A DNA stretch of 64,000 nucleotides from Klebsormidium nitens (lineage: Eukaryota > Plantae > Klebsormidiophyceae). The notes beneath the pieces were generated by a model. That model ran no database searches. It was not told the origin of the DNA and worked only from the letters and a program-made list of their open reading frames with translations. A program made the translations under genes and the position numbers. The stretch lies in NCBI GenBank assembly GCA_000708835.1, contig DF237096.1:108497-172496 (forward strand), given 5' to 3'. Below are positions 26,369 to 64,000 of the stretch, one piece after another; within the stretch, counting starts at the first letter, position 1; every line of letters begins with the position of its first letter.

Positions 26369-27199
26369 ATGGAAGCTCATGATCTTTTTGTTCAAAGAAC
26401 GGAGCTGCCGGAGTTGGGCCAGCTGTCCTTGTCCGAGGATTGCATAAAGACTGCGTCTGTCAAAGGAGCTGTGGCTGTATTAATAACCCAGTTCAATGAC
26501 ATCCCAGAGGAGCTCAAAGAGAACATCCTGCAGAGAGCCTTTAGAGCTGACAACAGAACCATGGCAAAATGCAAATGCGTCTGTAAGAGCTGGTTAGATT
26601 ACTGCCTGACGCTCTCCTTTAGCGCGAGCTTCCAGTCCTGCCATCACCCAAGGGATTCCGTTAGAACCGCAGAGGAGGAAATCAAGGAAGGCATGTTTCA
26701 TGCGGGGCACGAGCATATGCACGCAATCATCCGACTTGAAGCTTCTGACGCTTTCTTGGTTATCCGGACGAAAGGACGCAAGCATCGGGGAGGCTTTTCC
26801 ATTCACTTCACGGACGGAGAAGGAAGGCCTTGCTCCTGGTTTCGGTGCCTGAGCAATCGACAAAGTATGCCGTCTTTAGAAGGTTTGGTTGTGGAGAAGA
26901 CTCTCGGATCCACTCCCAAAAGCGAGCTTCTACTGGAGGCTCGCGGCATCGAGGTGAAGTTTCAGACAACTGGAAGGAAACACCAAGGAGATGTGATCCT
27001 GATCATTGGTGAACATTCGAAAGACTGGTGGGAGGACGACGGCCCATGCCCCGTTTGCACAGAGCACGGTAGCCACGTATGGGTTCTTGACCAGTTCGAA
27101 GAAAACGATCTGCGGATGGATTCGATCATAGAGAGCAGGTTTTACTCTCGCCCGGTATATCATTTTTATGATTTGAAGCTAAAATGTTGGTTAAACTGA
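26369..27199 (+). CDS. F-box protein, tandem paralog 1 (intronless CDS)
   Basis: N-terminal F-box-like motif FNDIPEELKENILQRAF..CKCVCKSW, collinear with the paralog at 28938. The ATG at 26369 is preferred over the upstream GTG start. Confidence 0.8.
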   Translation: MEAHDLFVQRTELPELGQLSLSEDCIKTASVKGAVAVLITQFNDIPEELKENILQRAFRADNRTMAKCKCVCKSWLDYCLTLSFSASFQSCHHPRDSVRTAEEEIKEGMFHAGHEHMHAIIRLEASDAFLVIRTKGRKHRGGFSIHFTDGEGRPCSWFRCLSNRQSMPSLEGLVVEKTLGSTPKSELLLEARGIEVKFQTTGRKHQGDVILIIGEHSKDWWEDDGPCPVCTEHGSHVWVLDQFEENDLRMDSIIESRFYSRPVYHFYDLKLKCWLN

Positions 27200-28937
27200 G
27201 CCAACTAGATTTTCTTCGCATCGTTTCGACGTTCTGGGTGCTTGACAATGATCCAAATAGATGTTCGATTCCTGAGGAATGAGGAGAACATGATTATTTC
27301 CAAGATCGATGCATTGTGCGTTCTTGCAATCGACGTATAAATGATCGAAGCAACGGTTTAAGCGCACACTTCAGAAGTGGCACTCACTTCTAAGTAGGTT
27401 TTTGGCTCTTCTGATTGTCAGGAATAATGAGACCGATAAAGCTAGTACAGGTTATTACGCAGTGCACTGCAGCTGCTAACTGATAGGACCGTCAAGTTAG
27501 TACTAATAGTCCGGGCATTCGATCGACCATGTTATTTTGGGCATACACGTATGCTTCAGTTCTCGTTGGTTCCTCCGGTTCTGGTCGGATCCCAAGTGCT
27601 TAGACGTATTGTATTACACCGATCAAACGCCTGCAATATGAACAGATAATCTTTAAACATCCGCAGTGGCCCATTCTCTTCGGCCGCCCACCTGTCCAGT
27701 TGGCCCTGGCCATTACTTGTGCACATGCGCGGCGCACGCAAGGACTACCCAACCCACCCCGGTGGGCTGCCGGCCCTCGCTTTGCGACCCTACTCGAAGC
27801 TGACGTCAACATGACTCGGCACCCTTCAAGCGACGTATTCTAGCTTGAACGGGGTCGCATGTGCTGAACGTATGATACGGACTAAAATAGTTCGCCCTGG
27901 GCTAGGATGAGGGGATTCAGCGTAAGCAGCGGGGGCCATACGAGCAGATTTCGAAAGGGGCTCCGGGTTCCGTCTGCTTCGCGTTCAACCAATAAGGGCA
28001 GCGATCACGTCAAATATATCTCCCGTGCGCAGCCATTGTCGGAGGATCGTTGTCGCTCAGACTCATGCGGCTCATCAAAGTACGAGGAGCAAAGGATGGC
28101 AAACCATGAAGCTCATCGTGAGAGAGAGCCGACCTGAGGCCGGCAGCTGATCACTTTTCCCTTCGTTGATCGACACAGGAAAGGCGCCGGAGATGGGTTC
28201 AGGTGGAAGCGCTAGTGACCCGCAAACAAGGTGTTGAGTCCAAATAAAACCGGCGTTCGAGCGTGCTGTCAAACGGAGGTTGAGACAAGCAGTTTTCCGA
28301 GCTTGGAAACCGCGCCGTGGTGAGTCCTGAGTGCGTTGCATCCGGCGGCGCGGCTTGATCACGCGCGCGGCTGGGCCGGCGGGCGACAGGGTTTCGGACA
28401 ACTTACTGGATCGGATCAGGGTCAACCGGACGAAGAAGCGCAGCGGTGCCCGAATACCCTACGTAGGAGGGTTTTCGTTGACCCGATTTCGAGCGGCGGG
28501 AAGCCGACGCAGTCTCTGCCAACAATGCGATTCCTCAAGTAGGCTGATCTGCTGACATGCAAAATGAGAGAGGTCGACCGTGAGGCGCAGGCGTTATGAG
28601 GCTGCTTGCGCAAACCTTTGCTTACATGCATGAGATAAGCGGCCACAGAGGAGTAACTTGCACTAGAGTGCCGTAGATGGGTATGGGTGGAGAAGTGGAA
28701 GCGCTCAGTCCTTACAGCAACACGTGTGGAGCCAGGAAGGAACTTCTGGCTTTCCAGCCGAATCGGGGACCTTAGAAGGCTTTCTTCTGGTTAGCTTGGC
28801 CCCAGCGTCGTTGCTGCAGCTGTAATTTGACTGCGGGTTTGTCTAAGCCCAAGGAGCAGGTCTTTCGATGCTCTCCTCCTTGGTATTAAGTCGCGAAGGA
28901 GTCGAAAGTATTTGATGCGGATGTTTTTGTTCGAAGC

Positions 28938-29702
28938 ATGGCGCTGAAGTTGGAGTTGGGTCAGCTCTCCCTATCCGGATATCGTTCTAGAGATGCCGCT
29001 GTCAAAGCTGATGTGGCTGTGACTCAATTCAGCGACATCCCAAAGGAGCTGCAAGAGAACATCCTACAGAGAGCTTTCAGACTAGACAACAGAACCCTGG
29101 CAAAATGTAAGCGCGTCTGCAAGAGCTGGCTGGATTACTGCCTGACGCTCACCTTTAGCGGTAGCTTCCGTTCGTGCCACCACCCCAGGGATCCTCAAGC
29201 TGACGCAAAGGAGGACGCCTTCTATGCGGGTTACGAGCACCTCCATACTATTGTCCGCCTTCAAACTTCGGATGTCTTCTTGGTTGTTCGCACGCGGGGG
29301 CGCAAGCATCGCGGAGGCTTTTCCATCCACTTCAAAGACAGAGAAGGAAGGCCCTGCTCCTGGACTCACTGGCTCAGCAACCGTTCCAAGTCCGTTTCCT
29401 CAGCAGACTTGGCTGCGAGTATGTCTCTTCCAGAGAGTACTAAGACCGAGCTTTCGTTCGAGGCTTGCGGGATTGAGGTGAACTTTCAGACGATTGGCAA
29501 GAAACATCAGGGGCTTGTCGAATTGATCAATGGGGGATTTCTACCAGATTTGGTGGAGGAAAAGCGTCCATGCGCGGTCTGTGCGCGCGCAGACCGCGGC
29601 TGCTTCCCGTGGGTGCTCGACCAATTCCAGGACAACATCTTGGAGATGGACACGGTTGTGGAATATGCGTATTTCCCTCCGAGAAACTGCTGGCACAAAT
29701 GA
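28938..29702 (+). CDS. F-box protein, tandem paralog 2 (intronless CDS)
   Basis: FSDIPKELQENILQRAF..CKRVCKSWLDYC. It shares CHHPRD, RGRKHRGGFSIHF, GIEVxFQTxGxKHQG and CxVC..WVLDQF with paralog 1. Confidence 0.8.
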   Translation: MALKLELGQLSLSGYRSRDAAVKADVAVTQFSDIPKELQENILQRAFRLDNRTLAKCKRVCKSWLDYCLTLTFSGSFRSCHHPRDPQADAKEDAFYAGYEHLHTIVRLQTSDVFLVVRTRGRKHRGGFSIHFKDREGRPCSWTHWLSNRSKSVSSADLAASMSLPESTKTELSFEACGIEVNFQTIGKKHQGLVELINGGFLPDLVEEKRPCAVCARADRGCFPWVLDQFQDNILEMDTVVEYAYFPPRNCWHK

Positions 29703-34200: not shown

Positions 34201-36797
34201 TTCCCCGCCAGTCTCCTCTGCTCCATCCCCCACCTCTTCGCCGCCGAAATCGTCCTCTGACTCACCCTCAACCCCGTCAGCACCGTCAATGACGTCCTCA
34301 GCTTCTTCCATGACGTCACCTTCCGAATCCACCTCCTCCCCCCATTCCCTCCACTCCGAGCGTTCCTCCAGCGGGCCACCCTCTAGTTCGTCGTCACCTG
34401 CTGCTGCGACATCATTCAGACCTTCACCCAGAACCCCCGCTCCTAGTTCCTCAGCCCTTGTACTTTCTTCGTTTACCCCTGCTTTCCGAGCCCCATTCAC
34501 ACCCCCGCCGGCCGCCTCTCCTTTCGCAACCTCCTGCCCCTGCTTACTCTCGTACAAATCGAACCCCTCCGACCCTTCGTTTGCGTCCGACTCGCCTTCT
34601 CCGGACGCTTGCTCAAACTCGCCCGTTTCCGGACCGTCCAAACTCTCCTCTTCGTCCAAAGCCCCCGCTGCCTTCTGCATCAGCCGCTCCCAATCACTCA
34701 ACGCCGCCACTTCGGTCTTTTTCGCAGCTTGCGATTCTGCTGGAGCCGACCCGTTGGCCCCCTGCTTGAAACCATCCTTTTTGCCTCCACGCAGTTCCAC
34801 TTTTTCCAACTTCCCCCCAACAAGCCGGCTTTCCTTCCGCCCATCAGTCCCTCTAACCGTTACCGAGTCCCCAGGCGCCTTTCCCCGTGCCCCAAAATCA
34901 TTTAAGCCGCCTGCCTCCTTAGTCCCGCTAGCCGTTCCCGGCTGCCCAGGCGACTTACCCTGGGGCCCAAAACCCTCTAAGCCGCCTGCGTCCTTGGTCC
35001 CTCTAGCCGTTCCTGGATTCCCTGGCGTTTTTCCCAGGGCCTCAAAACCCTCTAAGCCTCCCACCTCCTCGTCAATGAAGTCGTCGTCCTCCTGGCCCGC
35101 CGCCGCCTTCTGCATCAGCTTCTCCCACGCGGTTAGCTCCCTAACCCTGCCCTTAACCCCGTCGCCAGGTTCTGCCCCCTCCGCCTCACGCCCCGAGCCT
35201 TCCGTCCCCTCATCTTCACTGCGCCCCTCCGAATCTTCGCTCCTCTCTTCTGCATCTGGAGACTCGTCCTCTGCCGAGGGCTGGTGTGCTTTCTCTTTCC
35301 CATCCTCTGACCGCTCTCCGGTTTGGCTAACCCCATTTCCACCGAGAGGCCTCGTTTCGATGGCTCTTGTCGAGGTGACGGCCTTAGTTGCAGGCGGCAT
35401 TGCTGCAGACAGGGCCCCTGTCCCTCCCATGCCCTCCAGTTCCCACAGCGACTTCTCAGGCACGTTCCGGAAGCTTTTCTTGATCTTGGCGCCCCCGGCC
35501 GCGGGCATCACCTTCGTCTGTGGAATGAAAAAGCGGATCACAATAACGAAACAGAAAGCAGGAGCACAAGTTCGAACCGTGGGAAAGACAAGGACCTGGA
35601 AACGACATGGATCTTCGGCGTTGCTACTTCGGAGTGGAGCTGGAAATGTTGGGCATTCTGAACCCCATTCGTACCTCAACTCTAGAGGCATGAGAGGGTT
35701 GACTGCTGGCAAACCCAATCGAAACCTCATGCACAAGTTTTTGACAGCTGTTTGGTCTGAAAACAGCTTGCATAGACAGCAAAGCTCGTGTAAGAAGTCG
35801 GATCCTGAAAAGAAGCAAAGATTGTGTTCGCAGCCATACCCTCTTTTCGAACTCCCAGGATCCCCACTTGAGCCTCAACGGCTCAAATATGGGCTTCCCC
35901 TTAGGATCCAACAGCTCCGCTTTTGTTGGCTCCGCCCCCTGCTTGTCAATCTCTGCCCCCCCCTTATCAATCTCTGACCCCAGCTTATCAGCTTCGCTCT
36001 GCGGTTCGTTTTGGGAGGCCCACTCGGCCTTCAGGCGATCGAGGAACGAGGCGCGGGCCTTTTCCACACGGAGCCTACCGCCGCGCCACTTGGTGCCATT
36101 GTACTGGACAGAAAAAACCTCGTTTTAGAATCATGACGTCAGTGTTACGCTTGATATCATGAGCCCAGTTGTAAAGCTCGGGAACTCTCCTTGATGGCGT
36201 GAACGATCAGTCCAACAGAGACAGAATAGTACTACTTCAGGTTGGTACACCTTCTGGTCTTTGCAGCGCAGCGACTTATCCAGAAAACAGTGATTTGGCA
36301 TTATTTATTGTCAAGCAGGACCAGTATCACTTGTGCATCACAGTCCCTACTGCTTCCATCGTTCATCGGGTCCCACTGCGATGCCATCACGTATATCAAC
36401 TCGTATTCTACAAAACATTCACCAGCACGACAGCCACCGGGAGAAGCGAATGCAGAAACAACTCCGAACCTCTCCACTCATCTCCTCAACCAGAATCGAA
36501 ACCCGCACCACTCACCACTGCAAAGCACTTGCTCAGGCTGGCCTCGCTGACCGGCTCCAGGTCAACGTAACCAAACCCGCGGCAGGTCCCCGCATCCTCC
36601 TTCTGGGGCACAATCTCCGACCCAACCACTTTCCCGAATGGCTGAAACCGCGCCTGCAGTTCCTCGGGTGTGACGTCAGCAGGGAGGCCCCCCACAAACA
36701 AGCGGATGCGTCCAACGGCGGTGGCTCCACTCGGGTGGGGGCCGGTAGGCTGGGTGGGAGTGGGAGGGGCGGAGGGGGAGAGCGCTGCTGACGTCAT
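31217..36797 (-). CDS. ROS3: Nucleolar RRM protein, ROS3 (plant) / NOL8-Nop8 family, about 1400 aa, 4 exons
   Basis: Exons 36797-36516, 36103-35840, 35517-33578 and 32921-31217. The N-terminal RRM is RLFVGGL..CRGFGYVDL..LSKCFAVYNGTKWRGGRLRVEKARASFLDRLKAEW, followed by long acidic/basic low-complexity regions and a C-terminal FVRSATAEQEW..DYKRKKR motif. Confidence 0.8.
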
Positions 36798-38501: not shown

Positions 38502-41500
38502 ATGAAAGCAGCATACTTCCCGCCTCTTTTGCTCTGGCTTTGGCTGGCTAGCACGTCTGCATTGATTGCAAGTAGTGAGAAGCTTCAAGATGTGGAGGCA
38601 GGCACTTTCGGAGATGCATATCCGAGTCTCCTCGCAGCGGCGGAGGGGAACTGGGGGGGGATCCTGTCAGATGATGTTGAGAAGGAGACATTGAGGGACG
38701 AAGTGTGGAACAGGCTTGAGATCTTGGGAAAGGTGAGCACTGACTGGACCAAAATTGTCCCTTAGCTGCCGTGCAGCTGTCTGGTTCTGGTTCTGGTTCT
38801 GCTTTCCTCACTTTCAGATCTGAGCCCTGGCTGTACTTCTGAGAGTCAGGCTGGCAATCAGCAAGACTTTGAGGAGAGAGTAATGTGTTTCCTAGAGAGG
38901 ATTGAGAATCTGGTTCTCTTAGCTGCTTCCAGGTCAGGTCGCCACGAGACACAGTGGCGCCAGCTCATGAGTTGTCCTTTTGAAAAGCCTCATCAGTGTG
39001 TCCCAGCGCCTACTCTCAGTCAGAGTGCTGAAGGAACAGTTTAAGCATTTCTCATTGCGTCGCTCCTCTCGTTTTAAAGCAATTTAGCTAGTTTCCTGTT
39101 CTAAGAGTCAGTCTGTTGGACATTAAAGACAACGTTGTTGGCTTCATGGGAGAAGATTGCACATGGTGGTGCTCTGGAATGTGGCTGTCCCAGAGAGGAA
39201 GCGTCCCTTGTCACCAAGAAGAGATACAGAACAGAGAGATTTTGATGTATTCCTAATCAACAATGTTCCACTCGGGGATTTAGCCAAGGCGGAACTCTCA
39301 GCCACTTCTCACTAATGCTCTGTTGTCCAACTCTGAAATCTGACACTTACCACGGATCCAGCTTCGCTTCTTATGCCCTCCAGTGATACAGAAGAGCAAA
39401 GTCTTCAACGTGCTCCTAACCAACAAGGTTCTACTTCAGGGACCTTGCGAAGGGGGAACTCTCAGCCATGTTTACTAACGGTCGTTGCACTTCTCTGAAA
39501 ACCATGCCTTTTAAACTAAACTGCTCATGCCTCCCGTCATGGGCCTTTCTATTTGATATGCAAGTTCGTGGTATGACTAACAAGCTGCAGCATATGTTCC
39601 ACGCCCCATCATGCTGCTCTTTAGCGACGCCCCTCTCTTTCCACCCGCGGCCATAGCTTATGCCCTCCACATCTGCTATGCAGGTCAGCGATGCTCCAGA
39701 CAAGCTCCAGCGCACGTTTCTGAGCCCTGCAATGCAAGAGGCGATGGCTCTCCTGCAAGAGTGGATGACTGACGCCGGAATGCGCACGTGGGTGGACATC
39801 ATGGGGAATGTCCATGGCAGGGTCGATGCGCCCAACTCGACGGCACCCGCACTCCTGCTTGGTTCGCACTTTGTGAGTATTCCGTACGACCAAGGGTGAT
39901 TCGTTAGGTTGTTGTGAGCTTTTCCTCAGCCACGTTTGAGGCAACTTTGAGGCTGTGCGTGTCTTCGATCAACGAAGAAGGGACCTGGGAAACAGACTCA
40001 TTTTACCATTAACTTTGTGCCTGCTCGACAGCGCCAATTTTCCTGCTTGGTTTGCGCTATGTGAGTCGATTCGACAAATCGTCGTGGGCTTTTTTGGGAT
40101 GTTTGAGGCCACCGGATGCTGTGTGCACATGTTGAAAGAAGCGAAGATGGGTCCTCAAAACAGATTTCTTACTCGGCAAGTCTATCATGAAGATGCCCAA
40201 CTGGACGGCGCCTGTGCTCCTGCTTGAGTTGCATTTAGTGCATTGTCCTTAGAGATTGTTGATTGCTCAGCTACGTCAGAGGCTACTTGATGCGCTGTGC
40301 GCAGAATGGAAATGGAGATGGGACATACTTCCACAATCCTTCATGAAAGCTGCCCGCTTGACGATGCCAGTGCTCCTACTTGTTTCGCATTTGTGAGTAG
40401 TCCTTACAGAATGTCGTATGCTCTGCTCAGCTAGGTTTGAGACGTGCGCATGTTTGGAAAGAGAAAACGGCCCCTGGGAACACACCCGCTTCTTTGCAAG
40501 CGGGGCAGTGAAGACTCAAAGTCGGAGTCAGGTAAGGATTCTCGTTTCTGGTATGTTGAGGATGGAGAGGAGGTAGTTATAAACCAAAGTTTCGAGACAG
40601 AAAGGATACCTTAAACTTTTTTTTGTCATATGTAATCCCACTCTTGCAGGACACAGTGATTGACGCTGGCAAGTACGACGGGACTCTCGGTGTCATCACC
40701 TCGATTGCTGCGGTCAAAGGTCTGCTCCAGGGTGGCCATACGGCGTCACTGCTCAAGCGACCGATCGAGCTGGTGGCATTCTGCGACGAGGAGGGGGTGC
40801 GCTTCGGGTCTACATTCCTGGGAAGCAGGTACGCATCTTTTCGCGTCATCCTCTAACCATCTTTTCCGCATCTGCTATAGGCGTCTTTCCTTCCGTGTCT
40901 CTCTCTTTCTTGGGGCCTTCTGTGACAATGAGGGGGTGCGCTTTGGGACCACATTCTCACGCATGTTGCTGCGTGTTTATTGACGGTTTCTCCTTGTCTT
41001 CTGCCGTTTCTTTCCATACTCTCTTTTTTGCAGTGTTGGGGAAAGAGGTGTGTACTCTGAGTACCAGCTTTCCACAGGTCCCCATCCTCTCGAGAAGTAT
41101 ATTTTCCTCTTTGTCCTTGTCTTTTTGCGCCCTTCACTGTCTTGGCTGTGATCCTCCTTCGCTCTCGTCTTCGATCTTGATGAACCTTTCTGATGAAGAA
41201 GGTGGCGTTTTGGGGTTGCATTTAGAGCCGAGCTGTCGTCTGAAGTCGTTCTTTCGGTCCTCCTGCAGTGTCCCGATTGTTATACTTTTGGAATTTTGCT
41301 TTACGCCGTCAACTCTGATCTCGTGGACCTTTCTTAGGCCGATACGAAAGGTTTCTTTTGCGTTTGATTGTCTGGCTGCAAAACACCGGCTGCTGCTGCC
41401 TTTGGATTGATGGTCAATGATCATCAGACCCGAAGTGCGACATGCATCCGCTCCCGTTGGTTTTGAGGACGGCTTATGGGCTCGCAACCTTGTCGGTTTC

Positions 41501-44500
41501 GACACGGGAAATCTACAAAATCTACTGTTGGCGCTGCAGGGCTATCGCGGGAGGCTTCAATCCGAAGATTCTTGACGTGACGGACGATACGGGAACGACT
41601 GTCGCTGCGGCGCTGCTGGAAGCGGGATTGGCAACGGGGCTCGGCAAGTTGCCGGAACAGATCGCGGAGCTGGCGTTTAAGCCCTCAGAAGTTGCAGGTG
41701 TGCTTCAAAAGGAGAGAGACACCGGCACAGGATTCTAGAATGTTGCAATCAGGAACGTAAAGGTTTATGTAGGCAAACGACTTGACTGCACCAGATTGTC
41801 AAACAGGCGAACATGTGCGTTCTCGTTCTTCGTTTGGGCAAAGAAGAGGGTCTTTGCTGCTGACGAAAAACACATGTCGATACGCTACCCTTGGCACCGC
41901 ACATAATGCATCATTGGGTGGTTAAGCTTGCGTTCTACGAAGTCTACGAACCAGCAGGCAATTCCTTGAAGGATTCTGGTGGCCTTGTCGACAATATCTT
42001 GGAAGTCCGGGGCCGGACTGCCCATTCGGATGGCGCTCTTCTCCAACCGCTTGTTTAACCTTTGCTGCCTTTACCATGATGTCACCTTCCGATAACGTCA
42101 CTGCTCGCGTCACCGCCACGTGGCAACCGGCTTTTGCTTATTGAATGCAGAATTGCCTGCTGACCGGAAAAGCCTCTGACGTCAGTCGACTGGCTGAAAA
42201 AAGGCGAGCAGTCCGCCTCAGGAACTCGGCTGACGTCGCTGCTGATGTGTGCAGGCTACGTGGAGGTCCACATCGAGCAAGGGCCCGTTTTGGAACGGAA
42301 GGGCGTCGCTTTGGGTGTCGTTCCGACCATTTGCGGGCAGACGCGGCTGACCGTGACAGTGCAGGGGGCGCAGGCAAGTGCTTGGATCTTGGTTTTCTTG
42401 TTTTTAACGAACTCGGGTTGACACTTTTTTAAGTTTGGGCAGGGTAAAAACGCGGAATGCCGGACCTGTTCTCGGCATAGCTCACTCTGCGTTTGCGGAA
42501 ACCAGAGGCTTTTGTTTCAACCCCCGAAAGTGAAGCACAGGTGTGAGATTGAACCTGTAGAAGTTTCGCGCTTCTTCACGCTTATTCCATCTTGAACTGT
42601 TCCTTTGTGCCTGTTGCTTTTTAAGACATTGCTCGAAAGTCTGGCTTAAACGTGGCAGTGCGGCTTGCAGGGCCACGCGGGGACGGTGCCTATGGCGCTG
42701 CGCAAGGATGCGATGGCGGCCGCAGCGGAGGTGTATGTAACGATCGAGAAGATATGCGGAGGGGGGAGGTGAGGGGACTTTTGTAGTCCTTAAATTCAGT
42801 GTCCTGTACTTGCACAGTGTCGGTTCCGACAGAGGTATATGTAGCGTCGAGAAGTCTGCGGAGGGGGGAGGTGAGGGCACTTTTACATCTCTTGGTTCGA
42901 GTGTGCTCTGCTTGCGTAATGTCGGCCGCGGCAGAGGTGAACGTGACGACCGAGAGAATCTGCGAAAGGGGAGGGTAAGGGACTTTTTCATTTCTCGGTT
43001 CCAGTGTCTTGTGCTTGCGTTGTGTCGGCAGTGGCAGAAGTGAATGTAACAGGTAAGACAAATGCAGAGGGGAAAGCTGAGTGGACTTGTTGTGTGCTTT
43101 GTTTGCTGTCTATCGCGTTGTGTCCTATTCAGTGAGATAGGTAGTCCATAGACCCCCTTCTACTGGACCGGCTGGGGAAGAGATCACACCAGCGTGGCAG
43201 GTTAACCAACAGGTTATGAACGTTGTCTCGAGTCTTTGGCAGGGTTCAAAAGCGGGTTACAAGTACCATGCTGGCCTGAATTGAGTCTAGGACTCGACAA
43301 AGTGTGGAGATTGAAGCTGTTGGGGACTTTTAGAAACGAAGTACGCAGGCCGTTCCGCTAGAGAAGACTGAACGGATGCTGACGTCTGCAGATACGGCCG
43401 CCCTGAGGAGGCGAGCGGGCGACCCGTCTGGCAGGGAGGTACCGGCCTGGTGGGTACCGTGGGTGACGTCAGGGTGTGGCCGGGGGCTTCGAACGTCATC
43501 CCGGGCCGGGTAAGTTTGAGGTCGCTTACTTAGACATCTTTAGTGCACTTACATGGATGTCTGTTCTGCAGATCGCGGCCGCCACTGAATTTCAGACAGA
43601 CTTTTCCGCTTGCCGTTTGGGTATTAGACGACCGATGCGGATGCCGGAAGAACGGAAGGGATTCAGCACTTTGCACAAATGCAACTTTCTCACTTGCAAG
43701 CCTGCCTTCGTGACTGTAAGCTGAATGATTCCAGAGGAGTTTCGATCTAACGCCTTTTGTCGTAGCCCTGTTCTTAGATTACTCAGTCTCAACAACATAT
43801 CTCTTTTGCTCAAGCTCTACAAAGACGTTTTTGCTCTCGCTTTCCCAGGTGATTTTTTCGGTGGACATCCGCGCGCCAATGGACGACCTTCGAGAGACGG
43901 CCGTCAAAGACGTCACGGAGGCGATTTATACCATCTGCATCCGACGGGGCGTGAAGTGCGAGGTCAAACGCAAGGTACGTACCGCGCTACGTACCAAAAA
44001 GTGTCGCGCTGCAGCTCGCGACAAAAGTTGTCTTGAGCATCTTTAAAATTGTCTCTTGTCCACATTACAATGCTTCGTTTAAATAGCGTTTAACCTGCGG
44101 ATTAGGAATGCCTCTGCCGTGCAAAGAGTGCCCTATTGGAAAGAACAGAGATGCTACTCGTTTTGACACCTGTCTTTAGAGCGTCGGAAGCATTGCACAT
44201 ATTTCAAGTCTTTTTGAGAAGACTCTAGTTCGATCATGAACGGCTACTTCGCGTGTGCCTCGAGACTGTGCCTGTAGCACAGAACGAAAAGCTGCTTGAG
44301 CTGATGACGTCACTCTTCTGCAGCACGACGCCATGGCGACGCAGTGCGCGCCGGCTTATGTGAGCAAGCTGCAAAGCGCGGCCAGCCGTGCGATCGATAT
44401 CATCGGAGGGACGACCGGCATCTCGGGCTTGGGGCCCGGGGACGTGCCGATTGTCGTCAGCGGAGCGGGGCATGACGCCATGGCCATGGCAAAGCTGACG

Positions 44501-53254: not shown

Positions 53255-56200
53255 CTATTGCTGAGCGCACTGCACCCGTTGCGGGCCATCCTCATCTTCG
53301 TCATATGCTTCGCGCTCCGCCTGGGCCTTCCTTCTCATCTCCTCCTCGATGTTCACGTCATGGAGGGTCGTCTCCTCGCACTCGTCTAACTCCATGTCCG
53401 TCAGGCCCATCGCCCTCTTTGGTGGCAGAACTGTTTCCAGAACCTGCACACAATGGAAAATGACCATAAAACGATCGCTTCGACTCCTTTGGCTAAGAAT
53501 TTTGAGCGAGTGCTGAGCAAAAGGAACGAAACAATGTAGTACGAGTCCTTTCAGCCTTCCATGGGATCCTGAAGTTGAGAGACAACTGAAACTTCCCCCC
53601 TGCGAAGAGCCCTGAAAGCTGCTCAATAAGGCGGCAGTAGATTCCGCTCGCTATCGATTAAGCACCCTCATACTAGCGCTGCATGTGGAGCTGTCCTCCA
53701 ACAGGAAGGGGACCGTCCGTTGACAGAACATTTAGACCTCGGTTCAATAACAAATCGTCTCTCTGTTATGTCCCCACAAGTCTGGCCCGGTCAGGATTGA
53801 GATCAGGCGACAAGCTCTTTCTACAGAGACGTCCCACAAAAACCGTCCTGGTCAGACTGAGAATCAGGCAAGTAGCACCTTCTATGCAAACGCCCACAAG
53901 AACTGTCCTGCCCAAGGTCGAAACTCAGGCAAAGAGCTTTGATTACAAAACAAGAACATAACCCCAAATAAAAAAAGTAAGGTCAGCATACCTTGATCTG
54001 TTCAAGGTTGAGCGAGCCTGGTTCCGGGAACTCGACGTTGAAATGGACGTACAGGCTGCCCTTTGTGAAGGGGCGCTGGTACTGAGGCATGCCCTCGTCG
54101 TGAATGGCCTTGAATTGATCTGCAACAAAGTTACCACGAATCAGGTCCCCGAAAGTTGTCGAGGGCTCAGTCCCGGAGCCTTTGCGAATAAAGGCAAGCG
54201 TGCTGCTTCTGCATTCCGGGCGAGCTGAGTTTCAATGCTCACGAATGCTAAAACGACCGGCTGTAAATCCGGTCAGCTTTATTACGACTTTGGAATCGTA
54301 CAGATCACAAAAGGGCTAACGTACCAATTGAAGCAGGCGCACAATGACGAGAAGCCGCCACAGCCTGCTTTGATTGGCAGACGCTCATTAATAGAACGTA
54401 AGAATCTGCAACAGAATCCTCACTCGCTACCTGTATCCCCGGCTCACATCAGCGCCCTACCTTTTTTTCTACGGCACCCTTGGTCGCAACCACAAATATT
54501 CGCCGCATACTTGCCAACGACGGTCACTTTCTTAGAAATCTAGAGAAGACCCTCCTCGATCAATGAAATGAGCCAGATCGTCAGATCAAGTAATTGGGCA
54601 GCCGGCGCCCTTCATGCTTGCTGCACGATGATTCCTAAACTGTCACGACGGGGCCGCACCTCCCTTGGCTGGATACCTCCCCCGCAAAAGCACCACCATT
54701 GACGGCCCGCATCTAAACACACCACTTTGCACTTCGGAGCGCTTTACTCTCTCCTTTACAATCAACTCAATAAGCAAGCCCTTGCAATCTAGAACAAACG
54801 ACCCAGGTTTGAGGCCAACCCAAACAACACCGTTACTGCTCAATCCACTTACTCGGCTTGATGATCTCCCCCGGTAGCGACTTGATGAGCAGCTGGCGGC
54901 CGTCGAGGTGCGTGACGGGGAACTGGAAACCGCAGAGCGCCTCCGTGAGGTTGATGTCCAGCTCGTAGAAGAGGTCGTCGCCCTTGCGCTTGAACTTGGG
55001 GTGCTCCTTCATTTGCAGCACGAACACAATGTCGCCCGTCACCGTGTCCGGCTGCCAAAGGCGCGAAGCGTGTCAGTCCAGGTTTCAGAGGCTTCGTTAC
55101 TCAAGTTTCAAATCTGGCTCTCGTTCGGTTCGGTTTCGGGGTCTTGTCACTGAGATCTGTCTCTCGTTCGATTCTTCGAGCGAAGCAGTGACCTTGTACT
55201 TGCTCCTTAATGTGCGGCGTTGACAAGAAGTCGTCCGTTGCTGATCCGGCTGCGCAGGGAGCCAAGTATGTGCGTCCACATGCTCGAAAGTTCAACTTTC
55301 AAATCTGATCTCAGAAGGTGTCGCGAAAATGCTCTGCTCTACTCTTTCAGTCGCAGCACACAAAAATGTGCGCTCTTCGTTGAGTCCTATTGCATGACTG
55401 GCGGGGCGGAGAAGTAGATCGCCAAAAATCAACAACGACAAAGTAACAGAAGTTGAACAGATCCAGATTCCGAAATCGGATCTCAGAAGGTCGGCAAAAA
55501 GGAGACCATGAGATTCTCCACCTTCTGCGAAAGGCTCTCCAAATCCAGTGCTCAGCTCCTCTCAACTTCCAAACCAGCACGTAAGGAGACGGAGAAGAAA
55601 CCAGCATGTAAGGAGACGGAGAAGAGGAGACACAGAGGGACAAGAACAAGCCAGGAACTCGCACGATTGCAGCGCTTACTCTCTCCGAATTGCGTTGGGA
55701 AGAAACGGACAAGGGAAACAACAGCAAGAAGAAAACGAAGAACTAGCGCTCACCATTTGGTCGGCCTCCCCTTGGAACGTGATCTTTTGGCCGTGCTGCA
55801 TGCCCTTCTCTATGTGCACCTCCAGGATCTTCTTCTCCTGCACCACCTTGTTGCCCCGGCACTGCGGGCACCGGTCCTTGTCGTCCAGCTTCTCGCCTGC
55901 GGGATCCCGGCAAGGGCATTTGAGTAACTTAAAAATGCCAAAACACAGCTTGTCTGATTGCTTTTCCGTCTTGAGTAGAAAAGTATTCTGACAAATGTCA
56001 AGTAAGCACTTCTCTGATACACCTTTTTAGGAAAGATGGTTCTGACCGGCAATCGTACGTGGAAAAGAAGCAAGACCTGGCCGACCCCGGCAATGATCTT
56101 CTCATCGACACCAGTGAGGAGGACAAGGGTACTCCGAAGAGATTTTCTGAGCAAGGAACAAGACTTGCGAGACACATGACGTGACAGGTCTGGACCTCCA

Positions 56201-58341
56201 AACTGGTCACACTTGAACAGGCAAGCTCTTTTGAGACAATGATCCATCGATGGTTAGGGAAGCAGGGAAGCACACATCTGGATGATGCCCCAACATCAAC
56301 CAATCCCAACATCAGCGATCCCCAATAATTCCCTGTCTTTTGATCCTGCCGGCAAAAAGTTGGATGATTCCCTACCACCGTAGATTTCCATGGATCCCTG
56401 TCCTCACATACCTGCCAGTGAAAAGTTGGATGATCCCCCAAAACCGAATCCCCTTTACTTTGCAACCAGCTGTCCAGATTGTTCAAACATCTGTCTATGT
56501 TTCAAAGCAATGCTACCTAGATGCAGCGCTCACCAGAGCCGGAGCATTCGTTGCACACCGTCTGCATCTGTTGGATCATGCCCGGCCCCAGCTGCCGAAT
56601 GGTGACCTTCATGCCCGAGCCCTGGCACCCGGGGCATCGCGTCATCTTCCCAGACTTGGAACCCTTCCTGCGAGAGACCAGATTGTATGTTTCAAGACAC
56701 TGAAACAAAAGCGAGAGAAACACTCAGATCAAGAAAGGTGAGGAACTCGTGGTCAGCATGCTATGACACTCTTGCGACGAAAAATCTGAAGCATGCCCCC
56801 CAAATCTGTAGGGATAGCTTAGCCCCATCTTGGTGATTGGCGATTGTGAGCAGTCTGACTACCCGTCTCCCCAAAATGCTCTACTTGCTGCCTGTACCGG
56901 CTGCTGATTCTTGAACACAAAACCCTAACTTTCACACAAGCCGCCAGCACACCCTGTCGGGGCTTGCCAGACAACTTTGCCAGCTGTGCAACTAGCTTCA
57001 ACGAACAGCCCTGCCTTCATTGTATCTTCCGCGCAGCTAGCATCCAGGAGATTAACCTCTTGTGTAACCACTCTACTTACTTGCTCGCATACTTCCAGTG
57101 GTTGCATTCATCAAAGAATTTGACTCCAAGGTCTTGAGACAAGAATGTGAAACTCACCCTTTGCACTTTCCGCAGATCACATTCCTTGACAGACTAAGCT
57201 TCCTCTGCGCCCCGTTGTAAAGATCCTCAAGCGTCACCTTGAGGGGATGCACCAGATCCTCTCCCCGCCGCTGCCTACGCCTGCCCCCACCTAGAACAAG
57301 AACACATAGCTTGAATGTTGCTGCTTTTCCTCGCTCCTCTAGTTTGCTTAAAAACAATACATCTCACGGACTTGTGCAGATTGTGGATGCGAGTATAAAA
57401 ACCTTGTGCTTCACCTTGCCATGCCCTATTGATTTGCAGCCTTCGATTTTGCAAAAAAACTTGAAGAACAACTTAAACTTTACTTATGATGCAAAATACC
57501 TCCACTGAACAGCAGCCAGATAGAGTTGGTGACTGCAGCCTGGCCCAGAACTGACCTTTTGTTCCATTTTTGAGCCGGCCATTACCAGGGATCATTAATC
57601 TTGCTGCAAAACCTTGCGAGCCATGACATTCCAGGTGCATGCAAATTGTAGCTCACTGACAGCTTGTTTGTTCAAAGTACATCAGTATTCTATTTTGCTT
57701 CCTGAACCCATAAACAAGAAGGATTCTTAGGAAACGTACCCATCCCACCACCCATCCCGCCAAACGGATGGCCCCCGCCACCGAAGAACTGCTCAAAGAT
57801 GTCGAATGCACTATGAGAAGGTCCCCCTCCCATCCCATCCTTAAGGGCCTCCTCTCCATACTCGTCATAGATCTGGCGCTTCTCGGGATCGCTCAGGACC
57901 TCATAAGCCTGGCCCAGCTCCTTGAACTGCGATGGCAGCGAACACGAACATGCTCGGTCAGTCCGTGAGCGAAACGAGCGAGTAGTTGACAGCATCTCGG
58001 AAGAACCTGCTGAGACCAACAAACTCATGAACAAACATATGTAAAGACTGACTAGGGCCAGACAAACAGAGCGAGAAAGGGCCAAGTCTTGTAGTGAAGC
58101 GATGCAAGGAGGGATGCTGATTTTCTGGAAGGCTGAAAATCAGGAATGCATTGCACGAGGGCACGAGCGGATGCAGTGCTTCATGAAGTACCTTCTCGGC
58201 ATCCCCTCCCTTGTCCGGATGGTTCTGGATTGCCTGCTTGCGGTACGCTTTCTTCAGTTCGTCTGGAGAAGCACTCTTTGGCACCCCCAGGATGTCATAA
58301 AACCGCTGACTGTCGCCCTTTTTGGGCATACGTCCAAACAT
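53255..58341 (-). CDS. J3: Cytosolic type I DnaJ/Hsp40 (ATJ2/ATJ3, DNAJA orthogroup), farnesylated, 8 exons
   Basis: Exons 58341-58192, 57926-57740, 57290-57158, 56667-56534, 55896-55754, 55051-54853, 54119-53992 and 53443-53255. J-domain with HPD, a G/F region, four CxxCxGxG-type zinc repeats, and a C-terminal CAQQ CaaX motif. Confidence 0.96.
53770..53940. repeat. Degenerate ~61-bp minisatellite (3 units) in the last DnaJ intron
   Basis: CCCACAA..TCCTG/GGCCCG..TCAGGC units begin near 53770, 53831 and 53892. Confidence 0.7.
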
Positions 58342-58633
58342 GGTGTCCCACTATAAGAAGGAGCCCTCTTCACAAAGAGTGCGCCTGAAAGCACAACAGT
58401 CAGATCTAGATCCTCAAAACTTGGCCACTCCGCAAAGATTACCAGGAGCGGCAGGCACACCTCGCTTCACAAAACTTCCCTTGAACCTGGACTCCCGGTT
58501 CGCCGACTTCTGAGGAGAAGGCCAGCGCGATGAACACCCTAGCTGAATGGAGCATTCCTGTCCTGCGCTCAGCGCACAAACTGCTGATCAGACTGACCTG
58601 CTGTGCAAGAGGTGGTAAAGGTTCGCTCCTGAG

Positions 58634-58648: not shown

Positions 58649-59904
58649 CCTCAGATTCAACCGTCGGCCACCATTACCATAACTTTACCGTGGATGGGAA
58701 TATGATATCAAATATCTGACGGCCAGTGTTTGCGGAGTAGTCTAGCTTCGAGCCGTCCAACGACAAACTGAAAGATCCAACGGTCAATTCTTTGCAGAAC
58801 AAAAGAGAATTGGCGGGTACGCTCAATTGAAGTTGCAGGGCTGAGGCTGCTCTGGGAGTGCCAGCTCAACCGTTTTGCAAGCGCTACAGCCTAGGAGTCT
58901 ACGACTACCGTACCGACCAACCCATTTCGCATCATAAATAATTATTTGGGGGGGTGTGCGAAAACATAAAATAATTCTCAACGCTGGACTGCGAAATCGC
59001 AGAAAATTCGCAAAATTCGGCCGACCGCAGATACCTATATGGATATTTGTCGAAAAAATAAATAAATAAAAATAAAAATAAAATAAAAATCGGTGCCGCC
59101 CTGTCTGCATGCTTGCACACAGACTTGAAAACTGGACCCGTTAAAAACCACAGAAAGAGGAGCTCCCTTTCTTACGTACTTGTTTCCAATGATCATATCG
59201 TGCCATGGAACGATATCTAAAACCATATAATGATCAGCAATCGCACTTCGAGATCATTAAGGTAAAAAGGTACTCTACTCTCCTCATGTAGGTACTTGAA
59301 TGAGCTTCGAATCCGATGCCAGGCAGCTTGACTTGACATTTGCTTCGAATCTGCTTCGATCTTACGAAAGGAAGATTTTCGTCTGTGTTCTTGAATGACT
59401 TTATCAGGCTGGTTCCGTGCTGCTGGAAAAGGCCCTGGAAAGTCTCGGAATTGCTTCGTGAACCAGAAAACCAAAGTTCCAAGTATTCAATGGCACCCCC
59501 TTCATTCGATGACTGAATCCGTATCAAAAGAACACCTACTGAAGCTGGAAGTTTCAATCTTGCACAAGCCAGCAACTGATCACAAACCGTAGGTAACCTC
59601 GAGTCTGTACACTCTGCTTTGTCAACGTGATTGCTCCTGGGATGAGTCGAACCAGGTCTGGTGCTCAAAGCACCAGATGCACCGACAGCAAGCAATCTGA
59701 ATGTTTTTTTTGTTCTTGAAAGTCCAATTTGTGAACTTCGAAGTTCACTTCTGCCCTCCTCGCAGCTGACACTGAAAGATCTGACTGGCAAACACAGTAT
59801 CCTTGACCTACAGTCCAACTCGAAGGGTATAACGTCCAAAGCTAGTTCCAAAAATCGTCATCGCTAAGGTCGAGATCGGACTGGAGCTCCATGTCTTCCA
59901 GCTC

Positions 59905-60097
59905 NNNNNNNNNNNNNNNNNNNNNNNNNNNNNNNNNNNNNNNNNNNNNNNNNNNNNNNNNNNNNNNNNNNNNNNNNNNNNNNNNNNNNNNNNNNNNNNN
60001 NNNNNNNNNNNNNNNNNNNNNNNNNNNNNNNNNNNNNNNNNNNNNNNNNNNNNNNNNNNNNNNNNNNNNNNNNNNNNNNNNNNNNNNNNNNNNNNNN
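59905..60097. other. Assembly gap (N run)
   Basis: Run of Ns. Confidence 1.
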
Positions 60098-61127
60098 GAG
60101 CAAGGAGTTCCTCGTGGGAAAGCCACCGCATCTTCAGAAGGTACGGACTGCAGCAGCACCTTTCTCACACGGAGAAGGCAGCCGTGCGTTTGGGGGGAAG
60201 CACCACCGCTTCCCGACGTGCCTTGGCGTAGGCTGATTGGCAGCCTGCAGGGCAGCAGTTTGGCATCATTGGATGCGCGGTTTGGCGCCTTAGAGTTCAG
60301 ATCTGAGGCTTGTTTCAGCAGACTGTGAGAGCACCACAAGAGGCGGCCTGCTTTGTTTGGCCTCTTGGCAGTAACAGGGCTGCCTAGGGCTGATTTGCGG
60401 CGTCATTCTTGGCGTGTAGACGTTGTTTCTGCGGGTTCTGCCTAGGATTTCTGGTTCCTAGGGCTGGTTGCTGTCGGGCGCTGCCTTGTTTAGCGCACAG
60501 GGACTGTTTGATCGCATTTTGCGCAGGGTTTCCAGCAGGGTTTTTCCCTCAGGGCTGATCTGCTGTTAGGCGCCTTTTCATGCGCGCCTGGAGACTGATT
60601 TAGAGGGAGTTGCGCCGTATTTTGCCGCGCTTCTTGCAGTTGACAGCAGCCTGATTCAGATCTGGCCCCTCAGCAATTGCAGCGTCCAGCTTAGCACGTT
60701 TGGGAGCGTTTTTGAGAAGGGTTTTCCGCCTCAGTGCTGGTTGCTGCTAAGCACACCTTTTCTTGGTGGCAGCGGACTGTTTTGGCGCACGTTGCGCAGC
60801 GTTTGAGTGCATATTCTGCTGCCGTCAGCAGTGCCCGTCAGATCTGATTCTTTTGAGACCTGCATCATTGCCTTTGAGCATTTTGGGCAGGGTTTCGGCA
60901 GTCAGGACTGCCTTGCTGGTTTACGTGTCTTCAGCGTTTTAGCAGGGACAGCAGGTCTGATCCTGTGCCAGCGCGTCGTTCCTGTGATCGTCTTTCTTAC
61001 ACAGGGACTGCAGCCTACTTTGGAGCGGCAGCGCCGCTGAGTGTCAGGACTTACACATCCTGTACTGACGTGCTCTGCATTCTTGCGCACTAATATTTTG
61101 TGAGACATCCGCTGAAAATGGCAGGAC

Positions 61128-61330
61128 ATGGCGAACAACGAGGAGCGCGCCCCTGCAACCCCCGTTGAGGACGACGCTGACGACAACTTCAGCGACCTTA
61201 ACGTGGACGAGGAAGAAGAAAACCCTCAAGATCCTGCAGCTACAGGGCAGCGCCAGCGCAATCGCCGCAATCGCCATCGCCGCCGTGGTCGACGCAACAA
61301 CCACGGTCAGGGCAACAACAACCAGCAGGG
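61128..61330 (+). CDS. Putative Gag N-terminus (acidic, then Arg-rich), interrupted by a gap
   Basis: MANNEERAPATPVEDDADDNFSDLNVDEEEE..RQRNRRNRHRRRGRRNNH lies just upstream of the gap that precedes the protease ORF. Confidence 0.55.
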
Positions 61331-61350
61331 NNNNNNNNNNNNNNNNNNNN
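61331..61350. other. Assembly gap (20 N, likely placeholder length)
   Basis: Run of Ns inside the presumed gag. Confidence 1.
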
Positions 61351-61351
61351 G

Positions 61352-63289
61352 ACTTCAGCTGGCGCCACGACAAAGGCGCCGGCAGACAACGACATCTATA
61401 ATCCGGCTAATCCTAGACTCGCTGCTCTGCTGAGCAGCCTGCCGGGTTCGTATTACAGTGATCGATCGCAGGGCACCTACCGGTCCCCGCGCATCGACAA
61501 TACCGGCCCGCGCCCTGCGATGCTTATCAATGGGCAGGTTCTGCACAACCTGGTCCTTGATTGCGGTGCCGACGTCGTTCTGGTTGGCCCGCGCACTGCG
61601 GCCAAACTGAAGCTGACTGCGGACAAAGTCCGCAAGAACGCCATCGAGATCCGCGTTGCTAGCGGTGAGACGGTTCATATGGACGAGACCATCGAGCCGG
61701 TCGACTTTGTTTTGAACCCCGGCACGCCCCACGAAACCACTGTGTGGGCCAAGATCATCATTGTCCGTGGCGACTTGCCCGACACCCTGATCGGGATGAG
61801 CGTCATGGGCCCTCCTGGTATTCGGCCTGACTACTACAAGCAGGTCGTGACGTACTACGTCAACTGGTGGGAGCCACATGCGCGCGAGGCGCACCTCCCC
61901 TGCTTCCTGCCGGTCAACTACGATCGGCCCGGCGCATCCGGAGCCAGCTGTGCGTGCACCCCTCTTGCCTATAGTGCTGCCAGTACGAGCACAGGCGCAA
62001 ACAACACTCCCGAGCTTGCGCCTGGTGCTCCGATTCCGTACAACAAGCTGCTTCAGATTCCGTCACCCAACCTGGATAAGCCGTTCGAAATCGAGAACGC
62101 GCGCTTTCGGATGTGGCATTATGAGAAGCACATGATGCCCGAGATGACCGACCTATACGAGCGCAGCAAGGAACGGCTGGCCGACCCGCCGCCAAACCAG
62201 CGGCCTGTCACCGTGGAGGCGTACCAGCATCTGCGCCCTCTGGACACGAGCATGTTGGACCTGCGCGGGCCCCTGGCCAAGAACGGCCCGGGCCTAGTTG
62301 TTCTGGAGCTCTTCTCCGGTATCATGGCCAGCACTGAGGCACTTGTGCGCACCGGAGTTAAAATCCAGCACGTCTATGCCTGCGAGAACGAGGCTAAGAC
62401 ACGCGCCGTCGCAGAAGAGCGCCTAAGAGTGCTGTCTGCGACTCGGCCTGAGCAGCTGAGCGCCGAAGCGTTTGCCGATTGCCACGCCTTCCTGCCACAG
62501 GATGTCAGGACGATTACGCGCCAGCACATTGAGAACATGCAGAAGCCCGACCTGGTGATCGTCGGCTTCCCCTGCCAGGGGTTTTCGCGCGCATCTGATG
62601 CGCCCAAGGGGCTCAGAGACCCCCGCACGCAGCTTTTCGAAGAGGCGCTGCGTGTGATCCACCTGATATGGCGCATCCACGGCCCGTGTGGGTACCTTTT
62701 CGAAAACGTAGACGCCGCCGACCATCCGAACCGGGACGTTCGGCGCGAATACACCGAGGTCGTTCAGGCCGTCCTCGGCAAGGGCTTCGTTTTTGACGCG
62801 GTCGCTGTGGGCTCCTACGCCCACCGCAACCGGCGCTGGTGGACCAACCTGGTTCCTGGACACCTGGTTGAGGAGATGGCCGACAAGAAGTTCAAGCGTC
62901 GGCCCCCCGGACAGCGCGTGCAGGACATTCTCGAGCTTGGGCACACCGCCAAAGTGGCTCGACACGCGCAGGCTTCTGGCTCAGTGACGGTGAACATCCC
63001 AGGGCAGACCATCAAGGCTTTTGCCACCTTCGTCTCCCTGGCCAACTCGCACGCCTATCGAGTGGGGCAGCAAAGCATGGTACTCGATCGCGCGAATCGC
63101 GAGCAAGAGCCGACCGCCCTGGAGCGCGAGCGCGCCATGGGTTTTATGGAGAACACCACGGCGGCGCCCACTGATCGGATCAAGGAAGCCGATCGCCGCC
63201 GCCTGCTGGGCAGCACCATGGACATGCACGCCCTGACCTTCTTGGTCGGCTGCATCCAGGTTTTCCAGCAGGCCTTCTTTGCCGATTGA
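61352..63289 (+). CDS. Retroelement aspartic protease fused to a C5 cytosine DNA methyltransferase
   Basis: The frame is open from the gap to TGA 63287-63289. Protease: LVLDCGA (Asp at 61559) and LIGMS. DNMT: motif I LELFSGI (62312), II ACENE, III DVRTI, IV GFPCQGFS (Cys at 62573), VI LFENV (62702), VIII HRNRRWW, IX ERERAMGF, X RRLLGST. Confidence 0.95.
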   Translation, partial: TSAGATTKAPADNDIYNPANPRLAALLSSLPGSYYSDRSQGTYRSPRIDNTGPRPAMLINGQVLHNLVLDCGADVVLVGPRTAAKLKLTADKVRKNAIEIRVASGETVHMDETIEPVDFVLNPGTPHETTVWAKIIIVRGDLPDTLIGMSVMGPPGIRPDYYKQVVTYYVNWWEPHAREAHLPCFLPVNYDRPGASGASCACTPLAYSAASTSTGANNTPELAPGAPIPYNKLLQIPSPNLDKPFEIENARFRMWHYEKHMMPEMTDLYERSKERLADPPPNQRPVTVEAYQHLRPLDTSMLDLRGPLAKNGPGLVVLELFSGIMASTEALVRTGVKIQHVYACENEAKTRAVAEERLRVLSATRPEQLSAEAFADCHAFLPQDVRTITRQHIENMQKPDLVIVGFPCQGFSRASDAPKGLRDPRTQLFEEALRVIHLIWRIHGPCGYLFENVDAADHPNRDVRREYTEVVQAVLGKGFVFDAVAVGSYAHRNRRWWTNLVPGHLVEEMADKKFKRRPPGQRVQDILELGHTAKVARHAQASGSVTVNIPGQTIKAFATFVSLANSHAYRVGQQSMVLDRANREQEPTALERERAMGFMENTTAAPTDRIKEADRRRLLGSTMDMHALTFLVGCIQVFQQAFFAD

Positions 63290-64000
63290 CGGCGCGCACG
63301 GCCGACGGTTAGCGAACCGCACGGCCGCCACTCGGCTGCGTGCGTAGCCGATCACTATCACGGTCCTGAGCTTGTACCGCTTACCCATGTGGCCGCCCTG
63401 TCGAGGGCAAAGTTACTGCAGTACCGCCAATTGAGAGAGGTTCCTCACCATGCCGAGTGCTGTCGGGCCGCCATGCACACGTTTGGGGGGGGAGGACCAG
63501 CGCAACAGACCCCAGCAGAGACGACCGCGGGTCCGCCAGAAGGCCCAGGACCGCCAGAAGGCGGGACGACCGGATCAGCTACCGGTCAGAAAGAGCCGTT
63601 CACCTGGCCCCTCGGTGATCATCTTACCGAAGACCAGAAGACTCAGCTGAGAGAGCTGCTGGACGAGCACATTGATATTTTTGCGTTCGACATGAACGGC
63701 ATGGGCCAGATTAGGAACGAGACGTTCCGAATTCCGGTCACAGATGACACTCCAATTTTCCGGCGCCAGTATCGGCTTGCCGAAGCGGAGAAAGAAATCC
63801 TGAAGGAGCAGGTCGAGGAGCGACTTGCGGCCGGATTCATCCGACCGTCGATGTCCCAGTGGGCGTCCCCCGTGACAATGCCCCCGAAGAAAGACGAATT
63901 CGGGAATTGGACCGCGAAGCGTCCCTGCGGTGACTACCGCGCGCTGAACAAAATCAGCGTGACGGATCACTACCAGCTGCCGACCCCTGAGGAGATCTTT
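63290..64000 (+). CDS. Linker plus Ty3/Gypsy reverse transcriptase N-terminus (partial; same frame as PR-DNMT)
   Basis: Hand translation shows no stop from 63290 to 64000 in the PR-DNMT frame. RT-like sequence starts near 63600 and DYRALN is at 63932. It is missing from the ORF track because it has no stop inside the window. Confidence 0.93.

Follow-up and report, generated by a model that had tools for sequence, protein, structure and literature searches.

A conserved in-frame stop codon with a candidate type II readthrough context lies between the DNMT3-like methyltransferase and the reverse transcriptase of a Klebsormidium nitens Gypsy retrotransposon

Gypsy retrotransposons that carry a cytosine methyltransferase are represented in Klebsormidium nitens by KnitGypsy-Dnmt3, an element with an intronless Dnmt3-related domain whose motifs are intact, and for which a DIRS-like repeat layout was described (de Mendoza et al., 2018, PMC5890265). 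In that account the domain belongs to the Pol open reading frame (ORF), shared with reverse transcriptase (RT) and RNase H (RH), and the argument that the enzyme acts in cis rests on this placement (PMC5890265). An in-frame UGA between Gag and Pol, with readthrough, has been described in the Gypsy elements Tj1, Tosmo1-3, and Tcry1 (10.1101/2022.12.06.519325), while type II readthrough sites consist of UGA-CGG or UGA-CUA with stems after spacers of 7-12 nt (Firth et al., PMC3159437), tobacco rattle virus being a plant example (PMC2754532). We analyzed a 64,000-nucleotide stretch of K. nitens DNA (assembly GCA_000708835.1, contig DF237096.1, positions 108,497 to 172,496 of the forward strand; hereafter, the window), at the 3' end of which an original prediction, made from the letters alone, had recognized a Gypsy element with a single ORF running from protease through methyltransferase to RT, and had assigned it to an already published class. 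The latter point was correct: judged by its sequence, the element either belongs to the KnitGypsy-Dnmt3 family or is very closely related to it, and it shares with that family an intronless Dnmt3-related domain in a Gypsy element and relatives in K. nitens. However, whereas the published domain is part of the Pol ORF, the window and its family, K. nitens models included, have a UGA directly after the domain. A count of the word 'readthrough' over the main text and three supplements of PMC5890265 gave 0; its figures and main Supplementary Information lie outside this count, those figures may draw two ORFs, and the same-ORF wording may be loose. Two later papers that cite the family (PMC12344493; 10.64898/2026.05.21.726589) make no mention of the stop in the text available, and in the latter, the only one searched for the terms, 'readthrough' and 'stop codon' occur 0 times. 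No report of a UGA-CGG-hairpin signal in these elements was found in the literature searched, which lay mostly outside subscription journals. The methylase-carrying class is known, and its stop signal appears to be undescribed.

By its domain content the element is a Ty3/Gypsy retrotransposon with the order protease, DNMT3-like methyltransferase, and start of RT (Table 1). This order agrees with the original prediction, but the single ORF does not stand: the plus-strand frame is open for 645 codons and is then interrupted, before RT, by an in-frame TGA at 63287-63289, the sole stop across the 882 codons from 61352 to the window's end, and 237 open codons follow it. Read in this frame, the methyltransferase is the C-terminus of a Gag-protease ORF and not part of a continuous Pol. 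As in other Gypsy elements, a retroviral-type aspartic protease lies ahead of RT. The post-stop frame is 75% identical over 223 amino acids (aa) to the N-terminus of relative P0132, a protein with the order RT, RNase H, integrase (IN), and PHD finger, and it is on this similarity that the predicted Gypsy RT is upheld; the window itself holds the RT N-terminus only, and the 236-aa downstream piece has no Pfam match because the window ends ahead of the RT core. Relatives P0074 and P0076 have a zinc-knuckle Gag; at the window's element an N gap stands in its place. The alignment of P0074 covers residue 619 through the C-terminal residue at 74% and begins at the first base after the 20-N gap, and the sequence 5' of the gap has no similarity to any Gag of the relatives. 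No repeat family was found within 60098-64000, nor was the initiator-Met primer-binding motif within 59901-61400.

Three contigs from two samples and two studies (X1 record 7, X2 record 15, and X4 record 23, the last two from one sample) cross the methyltransferase-RT junction without a gap, and the same order recurs in the family. These observations led us to reject a nested insertion, or a misassembly, at this junction, and the single element claimed at the outset holds. Among the 40 of 290 contig differences listed, 31 fall on third codon positions of the element's frame, including five of the six listed 3' of the stop; none of the 40 lies at 63287-63292, which does not prove that the stop is retained there.

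The DCGA protease recognized by eye is supported by PF13650 (aa 59-151; E 1.2e-5, 26.3 bits over a cut-off of 24.3), whereas the other profile proposed for it, PF13975, scores 26.0 bits, below its cut-off of 28.2. D-C-G (at 61559) is also the commonest form of the motif in the relatives (23/49 motif matches among 83 proteins). The methyltransferase matches PF00145 (E 3.1e-10, 40.4 bits; cut-off 22), and all of its named motifs were located, namely ELFSGI at 62306, FPCQ at 62567, ENV at 62702, HRNR at 62822, ERAMGF at 63128, and LLG at 63203. These include motifs I, IV (PC), VI (ENV), VIII (RxR), and X, in unpermuted order. When a profile built from 18 family members was searched against solved structures, DNMT3C, 3A, and 3B were the top matches (E 7e-14 to 2e-10), followed by HhaI (1.5e-6) and DRM2 (0.005). 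The predicted model (predicted local distance difference test score, pLDDT, 80.9; predicted template-modeling score, pTM, 0.83) matches DNMT3A over ~325 columns and DNMT3B also along its length. By profile and model, then, the domain is complete and closest to DNMT3, not DRM, DNMT2, or bacterial enzymes, and the resemblance first seen by eye is borne out. The nearest Atlas cluster is mostly Streptophyta, and those close relatives that carry names, such as KFL_013780020 (60% over the methyltransferase domain), are KFL_ proteins of K. nitens, which points to a Klebsormidium-type alga as the likely host.

The stop itself is widely shared. Among 96 relatives examined, a pattern for the last methyltransferase helix was found in 29, and 24 of these, down to ~42% identity, end exactly at the window's stop column; the same is true of all seven full-length Gag-side proteins (1160-1281 aa; zinc knuckle listed in six). 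On the other side of the boundary, 12 close Pol relatives (52-96% identity, taken from the best 120 of 187) have RT, RNase H, and integrase, with a PHD finger in three and a protease or methyltransferase domain in none. Since 24/29 relatives and 7/7 full-length proteins end at one column and 0/12 Pol relatives have either upstream domain, the TGA after the methyltransferase is, on these comparisons, a conserved family trait and not decay. K. nitens itself has the two halves, split at the stop, under the consecutive locus tags KFL_013780020 and KFL_013780010, and apparently intact elements yield proteins of 1273 and 1116 aa, found on contigs of the same two sizes, 8996 and 9328 bp. A quick tree built from 44 domains places all 24 stop-ending rows inside one 30-row group (Shimodaira-Hasegawa-like approximate likelihood ratio test, SH-aLRT, 100; with a long-branch warning), and PCQ and ENV are retained in 27 of its 30 rows. 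A wider search, which returned 114 clusters with an E of at most 1e-30, added four representatives (47-91% identity) that reach the domain end, all of which stop at the window's column, although only 10/119 of those reaching the domain end terminate within 3 residues of it. Distant lineages mostly hold the methyltransferase inside Pol, with the order RT-RH-DNMT-IN-PHD in 24/142 representatives.

Two further observations concern where these proteins end. The K. nitens models P0027, P0045, and P0061 appear to be spliced around the stop, joining the methyltransferase to RT or RNase H, and are likely annotation artefacts. The distant protease-methyltransferase proteins P0081-P0083, P0270, P0272, and P0280 end at the domain or ~110 residues past it, which may point to further sites of recoding among sister lineages.

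For the nucleotide context of the stop, we compared four DNA copies: the window and L001, L002, and L003, the three true relatives among 80 loci of a metagenome search (the other 77, with 23-44% matches to short stretches, were excluded). T-TGA-CGG is present in 4/4 copies, which form two pairs, or sub-clades, whose third codon positions just 5' of the stop are only 21-36% identical to each other; CGG accounts for 23/109 Arg codons. A predicted hairpin begins 9 nt past the stop in the window and L003 and 7 nt past it in L001 and L002, within the spacer range of type II sites. Of the seven differences between the window and L003 in the 29-nt stem, six make up three compensatory pairs (simulation P 3e-4), and a control with slid partners gave none. 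Synonymous divergence (pS) falls at the hairpin to 0.30, compared with 0.54-0.73 nearby. Coding also continues in frame past the stop: the window, L002, and L003 each keep frame 0 open for 110 codons, against 2-10 stops in the other frames, and a helix-like motif at ~63371-63418 is conserved across the family. Linker codons 14-61, ahead of the window's first ATG, have a ratio of nonsynonymous to synonymous divergence (dN/dS) of 0.13 against L003, a value rendered imprecise by a pS near saturation. By these measures the linker 3' of the stop is in frame and under purifying selection. Frameshifting was rejected, since the 60 nt 5' of the stop contain no slippery heptamer. Viral contigs held only distant methyltransferases (20 loci; eight pattern matches, none a relative), prokaryote genomes gave no relative among 318 candidates, and Rfam had no match within 59000-64000.

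Taking this evidence together, we consider it probable (roughly 0.75) that Gag-protease-methyltransferase is the abundant product of the element and that RT-RNase H-integrase-PHD is made by occasional readthrough at the UGA-CGG-hairpin, placing the methylase at capsid level. Most ribosomes would stop at the UGA and release Gag-protease (PR)-DNMT, while a minority would insert an amino acid and produce Gag-PR-DNMT-RT-RH-IN(-PHD), RT being made only by the small percentage of ribosomes that read on. Retroelements require a ratio of structural to enzymatic products of ~20:1 (PMC2194720). The later steps are held less firmly. We somewhat favor the idea that the protease would free the methyltransferase inside the particle, where it would exceed RT; that it would there methylate CG sites of new cDNA before integration we put at even odds, cDNA self-methylation being a plausible step. 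DNMT3 enzymes are slow and oligomeric, and a slow enzyme of this type would gain from high copy number. The PHD finger on the integrase of relatives may, speculatively, select the chromatin target. As a broader and more tentative proposal, which falls somewhat short of even odds, the recoding point may have moved past a captured DNMT3 by means of a plant-virus-type UGA-CGG hairpin, putting a methylation writer at capsid stoichiometry and leaving cDNA densely pre-methylated, while sister green-algal lineages keep the domain in Pol at low copy. If so, those lineages would offer a natural comparison of methylase dose.

Several observations weigh against this reading. The published account places the domain in the Pol ORF, and in Tca2 a UGA accompanied by predicted structure failed to bring about readthrough in yeast (PMC2194720). 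Five of the 29 pattern-found relatives continue beyond the stop column, with Trp in P0013, P0024, and P0046, Arg in P0060, and the site skipped in P0027; moreover, the pattern missed P0021, which continues with Trp, and P0044, which diverges before the end. P0021, P0024, and P0046 form one nested clade that has lost PCQ (changed to PGK or PGQ) and ENV (changed to ETV) together with the stop. The hairpin was derived from the same sequences that were used to test it, the shuffle control for compensatory pairs was not significant (72/500, two sequences), and folding z-scores were significant for L002 only (-0.3 to -1.8 in the window, L001, and L003). The predicted stem shows covariation and follows a spacer of type II length, with energy z-scores weak in 3/4 copies. 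The four DNA copies represent only two independent sub-clades, L001, L002, and L003 are each damaged elsewhere, and the linker's dN/dS has the imprecision already given. Two results weaken the cDNA methylation step: the element shows no CpG depletion (observed/expected 1.05 vs. 0.86 in the rest of the window), and the Klebsormidium domain gave no methylation in yeast, a result called inconclusive by its authors (PMC5890265). Active SymbioDIRS domains likewise lack CpG depletion (PMC5890265).

The alternative that survives best accepts the expression proposed above and assigns the methyltransferase another role: it would bind or modify RNA, serve as a structural protein of the particle, or methylate host DNA in trans. 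The inactivity of the Klebsormidium domain in yeast (PMC5890265) and the undepleted CpG would suit such a role, and Gag-level expression gives a large excess of enzyme that is not tethered to RT. We nevertheless regard it as unlikely, if a serious competitor, since PCQ and ENV are kept in nearly all rows of the stop-bearing clade, the fold and best matches are those of DNMT3 and not DNMT2, and de novo methylation of CG is carried out by related Dnmt3 domains of DIRS elements (PMC5890265).

It is rather improbable that the stop is conserved but that Pol is obtained from an internal-promoter pol RNA, by re-initiation, or by a non-canonical bypass as in Candida Tca2. In that element a UGA is accompanied by a predicted pseudoknot, yet no readthrough was obtained from the junction alone, which contained a minor promoter (PMC2194720), and a protease already encoded in ORF1 means that Pol processing needs no Gag fusion. 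A separate pol start, however, finds no shared Met. The first one after the stop is codon 62 in the window, 10 in L002, and beyond 110 in L003; P0132 and L003 have Lys at the window's codon 62, and the Met at codon 13 of P0132 is Arg in the window. The linker 5' of those Mets is under coding selection, the CGG and the hairpin spacing fit readthrough specifically, and Pol must be co-packaged.

An intron spanning the stop and removed from some transcripts is very improbable, in spite of a precedent in Ogre elements, which have GAG-PROT, an intron, and RT-RH-INT (PMC6317226). The K. nitens model P0027 (KFL_000540020) does skip from a point shortly within the last helix to the linker, and a GT is present at -42 or -43 in 4/4 copies, but its phase differs between the sub-clades, and it depends on a Val codon in whose place many relatives have Ile, Phe, or Met. 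The stretch to be removed is itself under in-frame purifying selection, other K. nitens models simply terminate at the stop, and Ogre spacers average 274 bp between ORFs that here abut (PMC6317226). Finally, an ordinary nonsense mutation (e.g., deamination of CGA to TGA) in a defunct copy of an element with one continuous ORF, as the published same-ORF description (PMC5890265), the Arg of P0060, and the distant Gag-PR-DNMT-RT-RH-IN relative P0277 (a single 2188-aa ORF) might suggest, is already largely refuted by the recurrence of the column in 24 proteins to ~42% identity across a 30-row clade, by the 1273- and 1116-aa proteins of apparently intact elements, and by the confinement of three run-on proteins to one clade also lacking PCQ and ENV.

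Compared with known readthrough systems, the candidate site most resembles the type II signals of tobravirus, furovirus, pecluvirus, and alphavirus replicase genes (PMC3159437, PMC2754532), sharing UGA-CGG, a 7-9 nt spacer, a stem of ~12 pairs, compensatory changes, and lowered synonymous change 3' of the stop. It differs in that the hairpin is compact (~30-40 nt vs. a span of 100-150 nt), the -1 position is T in 4/4 copies rather than A, and readthrough is here predicted from sequence. Tj1, Tosmo, and Tcry1 (10.1101/2022.12.06.519325) and Tca2 (PMC2194720) also have an in-frame UGA with a 3' C that sets the structural to enzymatic ratio; their stop, however, precedes the protease, whereas here both protease and methyltransferase precede it. 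Ogre shares a boundary after the protease but has a spliced spacer and no methyltransferase (PMC6317226). SymbioDIRS-Dnmt3, SymbioLINE-Dnmt, and EpiLTRs (PMC5890265; 10.64898/2026.05.21.726589) are likewise retrotransposons bearing a C5 methyltransferase, though of other element classes or with another DNMT clade, and in SymbioDIRS the methyltransferase domain shares an ORF with RT (PMC5890265).

The conserved stop corrects the fused methyltransferase-RT architecture on which the cis-acting argument was based, and the UGA-CGG-hairpin alters the way in which the element is expected to function. The bulk of the methyltransferase would be produced free of RT, which it would greatly outnumber, and such an excess fits dense marking of cDNA but also allows trans action on host DNA. 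At the stop, gene models of these elements go wrong, being either divided in two or falsely spliced. The site would add a candidate readthrough signal in a streptophyte alga, the verified plant cases all being viral according to a 2009 paper (PMC2754532).

Table 1. Features of the element at the 3' end of the window (positions count from the first letter of the window).
Feature	Position	Strand	Basis
20-N assembly gap where ~620 Gag codons are expected	61331..61350	.	P0074 alignment
3' part of ORF1 (in relatives: Gag-zinc knuckle-protease-methyltransferase, 1160-1281 aa)	61352..63286	+	open frame; P0074 alignment; domains of relatives
Retroviral-type aspartic protease, catalytic D-C-G at 61559	61526..61804	+	PF13650
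Complete DNMT3-like C5 cytosine methyltransferase domain, catalytic PCQ and ENV intact	62288..63286	+	profile, fold, motifs
In-frame TGA followed by CGG, candidate type II readthrough site	63287..63292	+	4/4 DNA copies; stop column in 24/29 relatives
Predicted RNA hairpin, 12 pairs, 4-nt loop, 9 nt past the stop	63299..63327	+	folding; 3 compensatory pairs vs. L003
In-frame linker, 105 codons; first ATG at codon 62	63290..63604	+	alignment; dN/dS
Ty3/Gypsy reverse transcriptase N-terminus, cut by the window's end	63605..64000	+	similarity to Pol relatives

DNMT3-like domains also occur in Gypsy elements of other architectures (P0085-P0096, P0261, P0268, P0271, and P0277). One RT-RH-DNMT-IN-PHD protein is a named pol of Scenedesmus sp. 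PABB004, and Closterium has the order DNMT-RT-RH-IN. Gypsy-DNMT3 elements are reported for streptophytes only, and no chlorophyte case was found, in the parts of the literature searched; a chlorophyte branch of such elements may be unreported. P0086 combines RT-RH-DNMT-IN-PHD with a weak C-terminal match to an adenine methyltransferase (PF02086, E 0.0035, below cut-off), and this match would make it a possible dual-methylase element resembling EpiLTRs, except that a PHD finger replaces the chromodomain. In P0132, P0134, and P0137 a PHD finger (PF00628, E 1.5e-10) forms the end of the integrase, the position that a chromodomain occupies in chromoviruses.

Upstream of the element, the sequence between two N gaps (60098-61330) consists of a T/G-rich stretch and the start of a 71-codon ORF (61116-61330), acidic and then Arg/Asn-rich, which matched none of the relative proteins, no Pfam family, and nothing useful in the Atlas; it is possibly another element or the product of a mis-sized gap. 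An intron-containing host gene for a type I DnaJ (PF00226) lies on the minus strand at 53255-58350, ~3 kb from the element, and ends CAQQ-TAG. Direct-repeat families were found at 26486-29383, 34846-35070, 39836-40399, and 42755-43041, comprising a 2.5-kb-spaced duplication at 75-84% and repeats of 75, 43, and 82 nt.

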